From: an uncultured Chloroflexia bacterium
Lineage (GTDB): Bacteria > Chloroflexota > Limnocylindria > Limnocylindrales > CSP1-4
Assembly: GCA_963707395.1 (NCBI GenBank)
Contig: CAVPPQ010000020.1
Coordinates: forward strand, 262,021-326,020
Length of the DNA: 64,000 nt
Reading direction: 5' to 3'
Below the pieces are notes generated by a model, which saw nothing but the letters and a program-made list of their open reading frames with translations, was not told the origin of the DNA and ran no database searches. The position numbers were made by a program, and so were the translations under genes. Within the stretch, counting starts at the first letter, position 1. The number at the start of each line of letters is the position of its first letter. Shown piece after piece: positions 18,985-28,810 of the stretch.

Positions 18985-19391
18985 CGGCCCAGGTTGCTCC
19001 TCGTCCACGCCGCGTGGCGGAGGCCGTGCGCGACGCGATCGCCGACGCCATCGGCACCCTGCCCGAGCAGCTCCAGCGGTCGCTGACCTGGGACCAGGGG
19101 TCGGAGATGGCGCAGCACGCCCGACTGAGGATCGACACCGGGGTGGAGATCTGATTCTGCGACCTGCACAGTCCCTAGCAGCGCGGCTCCAACGAGAGCA
19201 CCAACGGCCTGCTGCGGCAGTACTTCCCGAAGGGCACCGATCTCGCCGGGCATTCCCGAGTCGACCTCGAAGCCGTCGCCCTCGCGCTCAACACGCGGCC
19301 GCGCAAGACCCTCGACTGGAAGACACCCGCCGAGGCGCTCGGCGGACTCCTACACTCGACGGGACAAGGCAAAGTTGCGACGACTGGTTGA
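18985..19391 (+). pseudogene. IS30-family transposase, C-terminal fragment with two in-frame stop codons
   Basis: The hand-translated +strand reads ...AEAVRDAIADAIGTLPEQLQRSLTWDQGSEMAQHARLRIDTGVEI*FCDLHSP*QRGSNESTNGLLRQYFPKGTDLAGHSRVDLEAVALALNTRPRKTLDWKTPAEALGGLLHSTGQGKVATTG*, the conserved IS30 C-terminus (SLTWDxGxEM, NENTNGLLRQYFPKGTDL, RPRKTLxWKTPAE). Conserved Tyr and Trp codons are replaced by TGA and TAG. The N-terminal two-thirds are absent. Confidence 0.7.
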
Positions 19392-19512
19392 GCCCGCCCA
19401 GTACCTCTCCATCTGCTACACCGGGCGGCTCCACTCGGCTTGCGACGACGTGCCGCCAGCCGAGTACGAGGCCGCATGCTGGGCAGACCAGCAGGTGGCG
19501 CCAGCCGCCTGA
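19392..19512 (+). pseudogene. second transposase remnant (IS3/IS481-like integrase C-terminal tail?)
   Basis: Translation RLVEPAQYLSICYTGRLHSACDDVPPAEYEAACWADQQVAPAA* resembles the ...SIRYTERL.../...PAEFEAA... tail of rve-integrase transposases; very short. Confidence 0.25.
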
Positions 19513-19588
19513 GCCCTATCGTCCGAGCCTCCACGAAACCAAGCGCGGTTCACGCACGCGGGACGGGCCTCGGCATGATGGGACGCTG

Positions 19589-20251
19589 CTACTTGCCTTT
19601 CTTCGTCGCGGCTTTGGTGACCTTACCGGCGAGGCTGAGGTTCCCCGCCGGCTCGGTCGAGAGGCAGATCGCGAAGGCTTGGGTCTGATAAGTTCCGCCG
19701 CTCCCGAGTTGCTTCCAGGCCCGTGCGAACCAGTTCCGCGGTCCACCCGGCTGGTTCGAGAGGAAGTGGGTCGTGTTCGCCGCACCCTGGTCGTTGCCCG
19801 TGTCGATGTCCGCCCCTCCTCCCACGAGGAGGGACCCTTCCGGGCAGTAGGCATAGGCGAACGTGACGCCATCGGCCTGGGGTGCCGACTTCGGACCTGA
19901 CACCCTTGTCACCTTGACGCCCGTGATGCCCTCGTTGTCAACCCCGTCCGCGAAGCCAGCGGGCTTGTTGGGGATAGCGTTCCAGTCGGCAGGGCCAGCG
20001 GGCCCCTGGGGACCCTGGGCGCCCGCCGGACCCTTGGCATTCCAAGCGATGAGCTTCTCGCCCTTGGGACAGGTGCTCACCTTGGGGTAGTTGATGAGCC
20101 GCACGGTCCCGGTGTTCTTGGCGAGGCACGCACGGTAGGTGCCAGTTCCGTTGGGGATGGCGGCATACACCGTGCCCACCCCCAGGGCGAGGACGATGAC
20201 GACCGCGACAAGGAGCGATCCGAGACCGAGGCTGGACCTGGGTGCCGACAT
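19589..20251 (-). CDS. secreted/anchored collagen-like (Gly-X-Y) repeat protein, paralog 1
   Basis: Signal/anchor MSAPRSSLGLGSLLVAVVIVLALGVG, short GPAGAQGPQGPAGP collagen-like tract, conserved PAGFADGVDNEGITG motif, 2-Cys C-terminal domain, Lys-rich tail KAATKKGK. Strong RBS GGGAGAGGGAG upstream. Confidence 0.8.
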   Translation of the reverse strand: MSAPRSSLGLGSLLVAVVIVLALGVGTVYAAIPNGTGTYRACLAKNTGTVRLINYPKVSTCPKGEKLIAWNAKGPAGAQGPQGPAGPADWNAIPNKPAGFADGVDNEGITGVKVTRVSGPKSAPQADGVTFAYAYCPEGSLLVGGGADIDTGNDQGAANTTHFLSNQPGGPRNWFARAWKQLGSGGTYQTQAFAICLSTEPAGNLSLAGKVTKAATKKGK

Positions 20252-20993
20252 GGGAGATCTCCCTCTCCCCCCGTGGGGTCGTCACCCGCGGCCATCGACG
20301 CCGCTCAGTGCGACCGTGCTGGCGCGGGATGATGAGGCCCGCGGGGCACGGTGTCTAGGTCTGGGCACCCGAGGTGGTTCTCGGCCCGCGTGCGTCGGTC
20401 TGGCCCGTGCCGCAGGCTGATGGCGAAGCGGCTCACGAGCAGCCTTCTCGTGGGCGCCGCGCTCGATGAGGCCGCTGTCCCCGGGGTAGTGCGGGGTGGC
20501 ACTACCTGGCCGGCGTCATCGCCCCTTGACGACATCGCCAGGCAGCCCCTGGGCGCCCCAGGCGCCCCGTGTCGGCCTTTCAGGGCCGGGCGTCGCGTGG
20601 TTGGCTAACCTGGCGTGCAGGTGCCGCCAGGAGCCGCGAGTCTGGCTCGCTGAGCCGATGGCAGGTCACCCGCGCCACGCTGGGCTTGCCATCAAAGCCG
20701 ATCTGTATGTCCACCTGGGTGAGCCGCTGCGCCAAGCCCCGAAGGCCACCCCATTCCTCAGCGTGGATGCGCGGCATGGAGTGGCGCTAAGCGGCGCTGA
20801 GCGGCCCGAGATCGCTGCGGAGATTGCTGCGCAGCCTCCACCACACGCTCACCAGCGTCCTCGGCGGCGCATCATGAGGACTGTCTGGACGCCACCCTGC
20901 GCAGGCGCCATCATCCCGCAGAAGCACGGTCGCACCGGAGCGGTGACGTGGCCGCCGGCGGACGATGCCAAAGGGGGAGAAGGAGTCCTCCTC

Positions 20994-26852: not shown

Positions 26853-27886
26853 CGACGGTCGTCGCGCATCGAGCGCACCTGCCGTTCTGGGTGGTGGCTG
26901 CCGGCGGCGTGGCGGCCTGGCTCGTGGCCTGGGTCCTCCTGGCCCCTGCCGTGGACTGGCTGACGACGGACGTGCTGGGGCTGGACACGAGCGAGGGCTT
27001 CGGAGCGTCGCTGGCCTTCTTCCTCTTCGACCTGCCCAAGGTGCTCTTGCTCCTCGTCGGGGTGGTCACGCTGGTGAGCTTCCTGCGCTCGTTCGTGTCA
27101 CCCGAGCGCGTGCGGCGCACGCTGGCGGGCCGCAACGTCGTCGTGGGCGCCGCGGCGGCGGCCGGCTTCGGGGTCATCACTCCCTTCTGCTCCTGTTCCG
27201 CGGTGCCGCTCTTCATCGGCTTCGTCGAGGCCGGGGTCCCACTGGGGGTCACGTTCGCCTTCCTCATCTCGGCACCGATGGTCAATGAGGTCGCGCTCGT
27301 GCTCCTCTGGGGTCTCTTCGGTCCGGGCATCGCGGTGGCCTACCTGGTCGCTGGCCTGCTCGTCGCCATCGGGGCCGGGCTGGTGGTCGGACGTCTCCGC
27401 CTGGAGCGCTTCGTGGAGCCCTACGTCTACGAGGTCCGCGCAGGTGCCGCCATCGAGTTCCGACCCACGATGGAGCAGCGCGTGCGCGACGCCTGGGATT
27501 CGACGCGCCAGTTGGTGCGGCGGATCGCTCCCTGGGTCGTCATCGGCATCGCGTTGGGATCGCTCATCCATGGCTATGCGCCGACCGACCTCGTGGCCTC
27601 CATCGGCGGCCGCGACAATCCGCTCGCGGTGCCGCTCGTGGTCATGCTGGGCGTGCCGCTCTACGCCAACGCGGCGGGCACCATCCCCATCGTCGAGGCG
27701 CTCCTGGGCAAGGGCGTGCCCATCGGCACGGTGCTCGCCTTCATGATGGCCGTCACGGCCCTCTCGCTGCCCGAGCTGCTCATCCTGCGGCGGGTCATGC
27801 GCCGGGAGCTCATCGCCACGTTCGTCATCGTGGTCGCGGGCGGCATCCTCGCCGTCGGCTACCTGTTCAACATCTTCGCCACCTGA
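26849..27886 (+). CDS. DUF318/ArsP-like permease (TPFCSCS motif)
   Basis: 345 aa polytopic membrane protein with ...GFGVITPFCSCSAVPLFIGFVEAGVPLG...; the TPFCSCS motif is characteristic of ArsP-type organoarsenical permeases and their partners of small thioredoxin-like proteins. Confidence 0.75.
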   Translation: MTTVVAHRAHLPFWVVAAGGVAAWLVAWVLLAPAVDWLTTDVLGLDTSEGFGASLAFFLFDLPKVLLLLVGVVTLVSFLRSFVSPERVRRTLAGRNVVVGAAAAAGFGVITPFCSCSAVPLFIGFVEAGVPLGVTFAFLISAPMVNEVALVLLWGLFGPGIAVAYLVAGLLVAIGAGLVVGRLRLERFVEPYVYEVRAGAAIEFRPTMEQRVRDAWDSTRQLVRRIAPWVVIGIALGSLIHGYAPTDLVASIGGRDNPLAVPLVVMLGVPLYANAAGTIPIVEALLGKGVPIGTVLAFMMAVTALSLPELLILRRVMRRELIATFVIVVAGGILAVGYLFNIFAT

Positions 27887-27897
27887 AGGGGGAACAC

Positions 27898-28155
27898 ATG
27901 GTCAGTATCGAGATCCTCGGTCACGGCTGCGATAACTGCCGACGCCTGGAGCAGAACGCCCGCGACGCGGCGGCCATGGCCGGCGTCGAGGCCGACATCG
28001 TCAAGGTTGCCGACGACCGCGAGATCGCCGCCCGGGGCGTCCTGCGCACCCCCGGTCTCGTCATCGACGGGAAGGTCATGAGCGCCGGCCGCGTGCCATC
28101 GGCCGGGGACATCGCGGAGTGGCTGAGCCAGACGGGTGTGCCACGCCCCGCGTAG
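27898..28155 (+). CDS. small thioredoxin-fold protein (redox-active disulfide protein, CxxC)
   Basis: MVSIEILGHGCDNCRRLEQNARDAA... is the 85-aa family usually encoded next to DUF318 permeases. Confidence 0.75.
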   Translation: MVSIEILGHGCDNCRRLEQNARDAAAMAGVEADIVKVADDREIAARGVLRTPGLVIDGKVMSAGRVPSAGDIAEWLSQTGVPRPA

Positions 28156-28733
28156 TGGTTCCGGTCGGCTTCCCGCACACCCGTACGGTCCCTCGCTTGA
28201 CGCCCGCCTGACCGCCCCGTAGACCGGAGGGCGTGCACGCACGTCTTCCCCTCCTCCTCGCGCGTCGGGCCGGGTCGGTGCCCCCAGCCCGGCCGACGCG
28301 CTAAGCCTCGTGAGCCCCGTCGAGCTCGTCCTCTTCGGGGCCCTGTGCTACGTCTTCGGCCTGGTCAGTGGTGCTGTCCTCATCCCCTGGCTCGTGGACC
28401 GGGGCCAACCCGCCCGTGCTCGTGCCGTTGCTCCTCACCGCTGCTGGCCTGCTCTCGGTCGACCTGCCTGGCGTGCGCCACTGTGGCCCGACAGCCACGC
28501 CATCAACGGAGACTGGAGCCGGCGGAGGTCGTCGCGTACCTGCGCTCGCTGCCGTCGCTCTGGACCGATGCAGGACCCGAAGGACGCCAGGCGCTGGCCG
28601 TGGCGCTGTTCGCCAAGCTCGAAGTGGAGGAGTACCAGAAGATGACCTACGAACTCACATCCGATGCCGTGGAACTCGGTCTCAGCGCGGCACTACCCGC
28701 GGTGCTGGAGACCGGTGGTCAGATCGGTGAGTT

Positions 28734-28810
28734 TGGTCGGGGCGAGAGGATTTGAACCTCCGACCTCAGCGTCCCGAACGCTGCGCGCTGCCAAACTGCG
28801 CCACGCCCCG
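28734..28810 (-). tRNA. tRNA-Pro (anticodon CGG), CCA encoded
   Basis: Reverse complement folds as CGGGGCG-TG-GCGC-AGTTTGGCA-GCGC-G-CAGCG-TTCGGGA-CGCTG-AGGTC-GGAGG-TTCAAAT-CCTCT-CGCCCCG-A-CCA: 7-bp acceptor, GTTCAAATCC T-arm, G37, anticodon loop UUCGGGA. Confidence 0.85.

Follow-up and report, generated by a model that had tools for sequence, protein, structure and literature searches.

We have analysed a stretch of 64,000 nucleotides (hereafter the window) of contig CAVPPQ010000020.1, from an uncultured Chloroflexia bacterium. Positions 15780-28749 of the window (~12.97 kb) very probably represent a decayed integrative element, or a short stack of such elements, that entered the 3' end of the gene for tRNA-Pro(CGG) through site-specific recombination by a large serine recombinase (LSR). 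The island itself is of an ordinary kind; its interest lies in the insertion site, a hot spot that is still active, and in the tRNA-targeting LSR family. An earlier note on this DNA had proposed a classic decayed tRNA-targeted element at 18985-28810. The decayed integrative element stands, but the tyrosine integrase implied by that layout does not, the remnant beside the tRNA being that of an LSR. The limits have also moved: the island is now read as starting at 15780, which makes it ~3.2 kb longer and brings in an NhaA gene, and as ending at 28749.

Since the window has a GC content of ~70%, raw lists of open reading frames (ORFs) were uninformative, and genes were called from GC content at third codon positions together with the gene calls on near-identical public contigs. 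Profile searches were performed against Pfam, NCBIfam and PHROGs, with an additional six-frame Pfam search of positions 19001-23890. ARAGORN placed a single tRNA gene in the window, the intact tRNA-Pro(CGG) on the minus strand, with the 3' end at 28734 as proposed earlier. Two contigs of the same species were available for comparison: contig_60586 (ENA; loci L001, L040 and L044), which was found through exact-protein look-up, and contig_4068 (locus L043). A collection of species-representative genomes, probed with the flanking MFS protein, yielded no close relatives; the best matches were 48% identical and came from metagenome-assembled genomes of Thermoleophilia and Actinomycetes in which tRNA-Pro was not nearby.

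The island is bounded by two attachment sites (Table 1). The tRNA end was searched for across the whole window, as 25 nt with up to three mismatches and as k-mers. The 16-bp proximal core (TGGTCGGGGCGAGAGG) consists of the 3' strand of the T-stem, the 3' strand of the acceptor stem and the ACCA of the tRNA. At one mismatch or fewer, the sole further copy in the 64 kb is the distal core at 15780 (TGGTCGGGGCGAGCGG), the first 13 nt of which are exact; the two sites are in direct orientation, 12.97 kb apart. No further core or stub was found between 15780 and 28749. The earlier note had expected 18.8-19.6 kb or 21.7-22.1 kb to hold a repeat of the tRNA 3' end; such a repeat exists, with an arm of 24 nt, but at the distal core, and both searches found no copy in those two regions. 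Core-like matches at 12745 and 29115 were considered as attachment sites and treated as chance, as they have 3 mismatches in 16 nt and no arm.

The 13-nt match at the distal site would be weak alone, and it is comparison with other contigs that makes it convincing. The arm that follows it (GGTAGCGCCAGCTTGACCCACCTT) recurs after the core at the left ends of elements in L040, L095, L096 and L097. The 40-nt junction of L095, which comes from another sample and has other neighbours, matches window positions 15780-15819 with 2 mismatches, as did none of 100 shuffled sequences. At the corresponding junction of contig_60586 (L001/L040), 36 of 38 nt agree with the distal site of the window. Integrated copies read from the 3' end of the LSR gene (...GGTGAGTT) through the core (TGGTCGGGGCGAGAGG) into the rest of the tRNA (ATTTGAACC...), while distal or tandem junctions read from other sequence through the core into G(A/G)TAGC(G/C)CC..., as seen in L040, L095, L096 and L097-L100. 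The recombinase-type arm (GTGCGCGTGACA) is absent to the left of 15780, as expected for the chromosome-side arm of attR; the flank there is also given as ...TGTCACGCGCACATGACG..., and the reverse complement of 15756-15779 is TGTCACGCGCACATGACGATCGCC. From these comparisons, we assign attR to 15780-15819 and attL to 28726-28749, both belonging to one element family, and take the ~13 kb from 15780 to 28749 as the island. Inspection of attP for dyad symmetry, by eye, found only the outer GGTGGGT...ACCCACC motif to be symmetric.

The gene remnant that abuts the tRNA extends over 28483-28755, rather than the 28498-28730 first assigned to it, and the complement of the tRNA 3' end supplies its last eight codons and stop. 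It has 157 homologues with E <= 0.001. The best 120 of these are 53-87% identical and are all short ORFs; 109 of them carry xGRGER near the C-terminus (56 stop one residue later, mostly as GERI, and 53 are extended) and 11 are without the motif. We considered whether the stub might be a free-standing, conserved gene of ~99 aa, given that these best matches are all short, and rejected this because the tail is frameshifted in L041 and L042 and is shared by hundreds of intact ~498-aa proteins. The stub is 67-77% identical to the C-terminal ORFs of L041 (a 740-kb contig) and L042. Both have a Resolvase-domain gene abutting tRNA-Pro(CGG), of which the short ORF is the frameshifted tail. The reconstructed 498-aa protein of L041 has 697 homologues with E <= 1e-20; the majority are intact, carry the annotation recombinase or DNA invertase and contain PF00239, some of them PF07508 as well. 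By sequence, the window remnant is thus placed as the C-terminus of a ~498-aa LSR and not of a tyrosine integrase. LSRs combine Resolvase, Recombinase and zinc-ribbon parts in ~450-700 aa. Only a stub without the catalytic N-terminal Resolvase domain and its active-site serine is present, so the window holds an LSR pseudogene fragment and not a family member; PF00239 is present in L041, P0241 and P0244. While the window retains only the last ~90 codons beside the att site, intact homologues hold the same position in L041, L042 and L102. The left edge of the stub is a deletion junction, because the sequence left of 28483 switches to the end of a small membrane-protein gene; the matching gene end lies 10.3 kb from the tRNA in L042.

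The tRNA end varies among strains of the same species. Contig_60586 is 99.4-99.6% identical to the window and differs from it in two ways. The first is a precise indel, an extra 7,025 bp at the tRNA with the exact 16-bp core on both sides (L040 12223-12238 and 19248-19263). The insert has a frameshifted LSR pseudogene of its own: next to the tRNA lies a diverged copy (A') of the recombinase remnant of the window, preceded by frameshifted LSR-type motifs (NPIYAGR, APIIDPALWSTVQ and a CxxC...YRH zinc ribbon); on the far side, the core is followed by GGTAGCGCCAGCTTCGACCCAC, nearly the same sequence that follows the window core at 15780. The second is an IS256-family element, interrupted by IS110, in place of window positions 23882-24783. 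Contig_4068 (~99% identical) is without window positions 23882-28622, i.e. the terminase fragment, the OsmC-ACR3-ArsR-permease-thioredoxin block and the left part of the stub. Since its remaining stub aligns as the A' type, contig_4068 would descend by deletion from a tandem arrangement like that of contig_60586. Judged by these differences, the tRNA-Pro(CGG) site appears to be a live target in the population. The left flank is also rearranged within the species (window ~10300-14940 versus L043 and L044): Flavodoxin_5-type genes are duplicated there, and a GerE-type regulator occurs in contig_4068 only.

The right flank (MFS-MFS-phosphoribosyltransferase ... PEP carboxylase) and tRNA-Pro(CGG) are kept in five relatives (L042, L046, L047, L049 and L102) at 78-88% nucleotide identity, while the DNA downstream of the tRNA differs in each of them where sequence exists. 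L042 has a 10-kb element with a family-1 LSR at the tRNA, and in L046 and L049 a stub or LSR ends there. In L047 and L102 the gene at the tRNA is an intact LSR from a second family that looks unrelated, and it reads through the tRNA in another frame (L102 11251-12840, L047 4326-4616); this suggests that the same tRNA end is targeted by two LSR lineages. Together with the 7,025-bp insertion and the loss of the ars block, these differences show that synteny is not conserved. Composition points the same way. The island (15793-28733) has a GC content of 0.689, compared with 0.713±0.006 (minimum 0.704) in size-matched chunks from the rest of the window, and its tetranucleotide distance of 0.0150 exceeds the maximum of 0.0122 among 200 size-matched control chunks. 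The GC content of every sub-block is at or under the control-chunk minimum. The earlier note would have been refuted by the absence of an att-like repeat, by a composition identical to the flanks and by conserved synteny, and on all three counts the outcome favoured it.

We propose the following course of events. An element of this family would have carried an LSR gene of ~498 aa, tRNA-proximal as in intact relatives, the 3' end of which overlapped attP. The LSR would have recombined attP with the tRNA-Pro 3' end, the shared 16-bp core rebuilding the tRNA, with a further copy of it remaining at the far end. Deletions, IS activity and gain of the cassette may then have cut the element down to the present fixed island. 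The tRNA would have remained open to new insertions, such as the 7,025-bp element of contig_60586, a second one of the same family, which displaced the older stub outwards, and a later deletion in another strain (contig_4068) may have removed that element together with the ars block. The sequences directly show the att pair, the identity of the stub as an LSR, the precise indel, the strain polymorphisms and the shift in composition. The role of the LSR as the integration enzyme, the arrival of the whole inter-att stretch by insertion and the order of events are what we infer from the arrangement.

Several points weigh against this proposal. The core at 15780 has one mismatch. An empty attB, in which tRNA-Pro would be followed directly by the sequence left of 15780, was not found among the relatives or the representative genomes, and insertion of the whole 13 kb therefore rests on the att pair. 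A PAS-like protein of 171 aa in the left flank has many homologues, none of them syntenic, and L045 shares the gene only. The shift in GC content is small, and sub-blocks 15793-18985 and 23882-28622 are by themselves non-significant tetranucleotide outliers (p~0.10). Positions 14942-23881, including the attR junction, are common to all three same-species contigs, so that presence/absence is shown for sub-blocks only. Finally, short common cores and targets that lie within genes are the norm for serine recombinases (PMC8092301), and it is the position of the gene that points to LSR catalysis at a 16-bp tRNA core.

An unlikely but not negligible alternative is that only the tRNA-proximal piece (the stub and perhaps the ars block) is foreign, that 15780 is the scar of an unrelated lost element, and that the NhaA, hypothetical, collagen-like and SnoaL genes are ancestral and have been rearranged here. 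This would account for the stretch common to the three conspecific contigs, for the absence of a tetranucleotide signal in 15793-18985, for the ordinary chromosomal functions of NhaA and SnoaL and for the rearrangement between strains of the left flank below 14.9 kb. Against it stands the att pair, which is direct and has the correct polarity, with the chromosome-side arm left of 15780, the element-side arm to its right and the recombinase-side arm at the tRNA. The low GC content of every sub-block, noted above, is also at odds with it, as are the richness of the interval in debris (the IS30 remnant and the methylase and terminase fragments) and the fact that L042, L047 and L102 have no homology to 15.8-28.4 kb downstream of the tRNA.

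That the island is instead a decayed prophage or phage satellite, with the LSR as phage integrase and the small terminase, methylase and collagen-like genes as remains of the phage body, we consider improbable. The virion genes of the window amount to one half of a small-terminase ORF of the P27 type, and this fragment may be unrelated debris, as its segment is flanked by IS-mediated breakpoints. There is also a phage-type methylase fragment, and the collagen-like ORFs match tail-fibre PHROGs, but these matches span the G-X-Y repeat only (residues ~237-267), and the proteins carry a membrane anchor at the N-terminus and are retained by all sister contigs. The D5_N/DUF3854 primase-helicase genes beside the LSR in intact relatives are of a kind found in many satellites; capsid, portal, large terminase, tail and lysis genes were seen neither here nor in 10-kb views of L041, L042 and L097-L100. 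As the earlier note had stated, an intact integrase, a large terminase and a capsid gene are missing; none was detected with Pfam, NCBIfam or PHROGs.

It is highly improbable that the island is a classical tyrosine-integrase tRNA island (pSAM2- or P4-like) that has lost its integrase and in which the serine stub is incidental, although pSAM2 does use a tRNA-Pro gene. Targeting of a tRNA 3' end with a reconstituting direct repeat is a hallmark of tyrosine integrases (PMC8092301), but six-frame Pfam scans found no tyrosine-integrase remnant, a serine recombinase or stub abuts the tRNA core in every occupied relative examined (L040, L041, L042, L046, L047, L049 and L102), and hundreds of contigs maintain the reading frame of the recombinase across the core.

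We return to the LSR that, in our proposal, inserted the island. The family of the stub was found in soil Actinomycetota and Chloroflexota metagenomes. C-terminal classes were counted in the best 120 (P0241-P0360) of the 697 full-length homologues. One residue past GER is the end of 71 of the 120 (61 as GERI), with a median length of 498 aa among those of >=480 aa; a further 34 run on for 8-53 residues, most often 27, with a median of 524 aa among those of >=480 aa. P0241 is an example of the short form and P0244 of the long one. Extended forms, which often close in -SA or -AA, have a terminal Ala in 22 of 34 cases and end in -SA in 12 of 34, an enrichment that is only suggestive because related sequences are not independent. 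As read from the junctions, the short form would be the product of integration into the tRNA, which supplies the stop after FGRGERI, and the long form that of attP or a tandem junction; because contigs L098-L100 had no terminal overlap when checked for circularity, the long form is not assignable to free circles versus tandem junctions. We tentatively raise the possibility that the stub belongs to a widespread, apparently undescribed LSR family that targets the last 16 nt of tRNA-Pro(CGG) and has a stop codon of its own that depends on the integration state. A limited literature search found no paper on an LSR targeting tRNA-Pro. The C-terminal tail could serve as a degradation or regulatory tag.

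Some further features of the family were observed. Short C-terminal ORFs are very numerous in the database (P0001-P0120), often exactly 99 aa long and starting with MARLD..., and the gene is split by frameshifts in L041 (8803-10300) and L042 (8972-10480), for which long-read assembly errors, real decay or something programmed are candidates. Frameshifts, assembly errors or genuine stubs are the probable origin of many of the short ORFs. P0091 (138 aa, from a contig of 420 kb) joins a ParB-like N-terminal sequence to the tail of this recombinase near the position at which the window stub starts, and stubs that arose independently may tend to share a breakpoint. Beside the recombinase, intact family members have a DUF3854 gene and an ORF of 72-120 aa (L041 1-1674 and 6505-8806, L097 6821-9834); the DUF3854 gene comes with AAA_25 in L041 and with D5_N and DUF5906 in L097. 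In L041, an IS30-like gene and an N6_N4 methylase gene also lie side by side, and fragments of both gene types persist in the window island.

The closest described analogue appears to be the ssrA islands of Dehalococcoides, which have an LSR at attL, at the 3' end of a structured-RNA gene, and a ~20-bp direct repeat at the far boundary (PMC3146451). The window and its relatives share with these the LSR gene adjoining attL at the 3' end of a small structured RNA, the 3'-end direct repeat marking the far boundary, tandem stacking downstream of the gene, many islands without an integration module that are apparently fixed, and strain-specific cargo. They differ in their target, which is tRNA-Pro(CGG) where the Dehalococcoides islands use the tmRNA gene, in a core of 16 bp and in their host, a soil bacterium of 70% GC. 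The LSR of L041, L042 and L097 also has other neighbours, a DUF3854/D5_N primase-helicase and the 72-120 aa ORF; a second small serine recombinase (DsiA/CcrA-like) or a ParB, RecF or Mom module was not observed beside it. SCCmec, with CcrAB, has a protein-coding target (rlmH/orfX) and needs two recombinases. It is likewise a serine-recombinase island at the 3' end of a conserved single-copy gene that is not inactivated, with short direct repeats and with tandem or composite islands carrying resistance cargo, whereas a single LSR was seen here and the target is a tRNA; SCCmec/CcrAB is also discussed in PMC3146451.

As in pSAM2-type actinomycete elements, the target is the 3' part of tRNA-Pro in a Gram-positive-type genome of high GC content, and an identity segment restores the tRNA. 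However, pSAM2 has a tyrosine integrase and Xis and an identity segment of 58 bp, unlike the serine enzyme and 16-bp core found here. The serine integrases of mycobacteriophages (Bxb1, MabI/MabJ prophages) have common cores of 5-8 bp and integrate in and disrupt protein-coding genes, and the generalisation is that tRNA targets belong to tyrosine integrases (PMC8092301). The present family resembles them in its Resolvase and Recombinase domains, its length of ~500 aa and the position of the gene beside attP, and differs in its 16-bp core and in regenerating the tRNA. In myxophage Mx8 (IntP/IntX), attP lies inside an element gene, that of a tyrosine integrase, and integration alters the encoded C-terminus. 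In integration-dependent immunity, the affected gene is that of a repressor (PMC8092301). The LSR gene shares the location of attP within it, its frame ending ...GERI-stop when integrated and running for 8-53 more residues with the element's own arm, but the gene here is that of an LSR and the window copy is a dead stub.

The remaining features are listed in Table 1. Most of the gene content described in the earlier note was confirmed. The IS30 pseudogene has 77% identity, by tblastn, to residues 340-463 of an intact 463-aa HTH_38/rve protein in L041 and was missed by Pfam, so that only tblastn recovered it; it falls short of a full-length DDE transposase, and inverted repeats were not searched. 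A second IS remnant had been reported, but none was found by the six-frame Pfam search (19001-23890) or by tblastn of the window with the IS256 and IS110 transposases of the sister contig. The collagen-like family holds as two paralogs, divergently oriented and 46% identical, with a weak Pfam Collagen match below threshold. Of the methylase fragments, a single N6_N4 fragment was recovered. The P27-type terminase is confirmed for the N-terminal half, while its TIGR01558 score (34 bits) is under the cutoff of 45.6. The VapBC module does lie on the other side of the tRNA, where it is an indel among relatives that share the MFS-tRNA arrangement, being absent from L042, L047 and L102 and present in L046 and L048. 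Also on that side, two tandem MFS transporter paralogs (window 29585-32035; ~72% nucleotide identity) adjoin the tRNA and are kept in all syntenic relatives. Elsewhere in the window, 44000-52500 is a second low-GC block (GC 0.666) and tetranucleotide outlier. Its genes lie on the minus strand throughout and are those of a sugar ABC transporter (binding protein, two permeases and ATPase), an FGGY kinase and a URO-D-like protein; the ORFs that were scanned there included no mobility genes.

The OsmC-ACR3-ArsR-permease-thioredoxin cluster at 24896-28155 was likewise borne out by profile searches. It contains an ArsR regulator together with an efflux carrier of the ArsB or ACR3 type, the combination that marks an ars operon. 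The carrier is called ACR3-like because its TIGR00832 score is under the equivalog cutoff; for this reason, and because no ArsC or LMWPc match to an arsenate reductase was found in the cluster, efflux of arsenite or metalloids is given as a predicted function. The four-gene part ACR3-ArsR-permease-thioredoxin (25388-28129) recurs in L101 with 86.7% nucleotide identity, between unrelated genes and with no tRNA nearby, the homology ending at the cassette edges. This recurrence and the absence of the block from contig_4068 support the label of cassette, and the four genes appear from this comparison to be portable. In L101 (8954-13388), an unrelated genome, the homologous cassette adjoins a MerR-LMW-phosphatase (LMWPc, ArsC-like) fusion gene and cation-efflux genes.

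Table 1 Features of the candidate island and its surroundings (positions in the window)
Feature	Position	Strand	Basis or remark
Distal att core (attR), TGGTCGGGGCGAGCGG	15780..15795	+	15/16 direct repeat of the last 16 nt of tRNA-Pro, same orientation
Element-side arm of attR (P' arm), GGTAGCGCCAGCTTGACCCACCTT	15796..15819	+	24 nt; recurs after the core at element left ends (L040, L095, L096, L097)
NhaA Na+/H+ antiporter (cargo)	16028..17403	+	PF06965 E=6e-150; TIGR00773; start codon from L043 gene call
Hypothetical, 98 aa	17485..17781	-	GC3 profile; L043/L044 gene calls; no match in Pfam, NCBIfam, PHROG
Hypothetical, 299 aa	18006..18905	-	GC3 profile; L043/L044 gene calls; no match in Pfam, NCBIfam, PHROG
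IS30-family transposase pseudogene, C-terminal 124 codons, in-frame stops	19017..19388	+	tblastn
Collagen-like (G-X-Y) signal-anchored protein, paralog 1	19589..20251	-	Identical protein in two sister contigs
Collagen-like protein, paralog 2	20994..21704	+	ORF start possible as early as 20496
Hypothetical	22093..22440	-	L040 gene calls; no match in Pfam, NCBIfam, PHROGs
Hypothetical	22636..23037	+	L040 gene calls; no match in Pfam, NCBIfam, PHROGs
N6_N4 DNA methyltransferase fragment, C-terminal part of domain only	~23076..23306	+	PF01555 E=3.4e-11, profile 134-216 of 221; phrog_67, phrog_498
SnoaL-like protein	23340..23807	-	PF12680 E=8.8e-16
Strain-variable segment	23882..24783	.	IS256::IS110 in contig_60586; 23882 is the left breakpoint of the contig_4068 deletion
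P27-family small terminase fragment, N-terminal half only	24446..24883	+	PF05119 E=4.7e-7 (profile 1-50 of 98); phrog_83 E=2.9e-14
OsmC-like	24896..25408	+	Profile searches
ACR3-like arsenite carrier	25405..26517	+	TIGR00832 245.8 bits, equivalog cutoff 282.8
ArsR/SmtB regulator	26514..26852	+	NF033788 71 bits, cutoff 55
ArsP_1-type permease	26849..27886	+	Profile searches
MTH895/ArsE thioredoxin-like	27898..28155	+	Profile searches
Frameshifted small membrane-protein gene	28240..28482	+	C-terminal end homologous to L042 90-163
LSR stub, C-terminal ~90 codons	28483..28755	+	Frame ends ...GEFGRGERI; TGA stop at 28753-28755 inside the tRNA gene
Proximal att core (attL), TGGTCGGGGCGAGAGG	28734..28749	+	Last 16 nt of tRNA including CCA
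tRNA-Pro(CGG), intact	28734..28810	-	ARAGORN; 3' end at 28734, island on the 3' side
VapB-like ORF, 79 aa	28940..29176	+	Overlaps toxin start; no Pfam match; RHH character judged by eye
VapC (PIN)	29177..29578	+	PIN E=9.2e-16; 5' side of tRNA, outside the island

A region that would otherwise be annotated as ordinary chromosome, ~13 kb with NhaA and an arsenite-type cassette, is on this evidence a probable fixed mobile-element remnant; fixed and without self-excision, because its recombinase is reduced to the last ~90 codons. The tRNA-Pro(CGG) locus is a recombination hot spot at which strains that are ~99% identical still differ. The remnant also leads to a large, well-populated serine recombinase family whose natural target appears to be defined, namely a 16-bp core of a tRNA that is universally conserved. 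This contrasts with the usual rule for serine integrases, by which tRNA genes are avoided and cores are very short. The attP arms of the family are recoverable from metagenomes, and enzyme/site pairs of this kind are sought by genome-engineering screens. If the C-terminal tail were a tag, the level or directionality of the recombinase would be coupled to integration of the element, and the family would provide an LSR counterpart of Mx8 IntP/IntX and of integration-dependent immunity.

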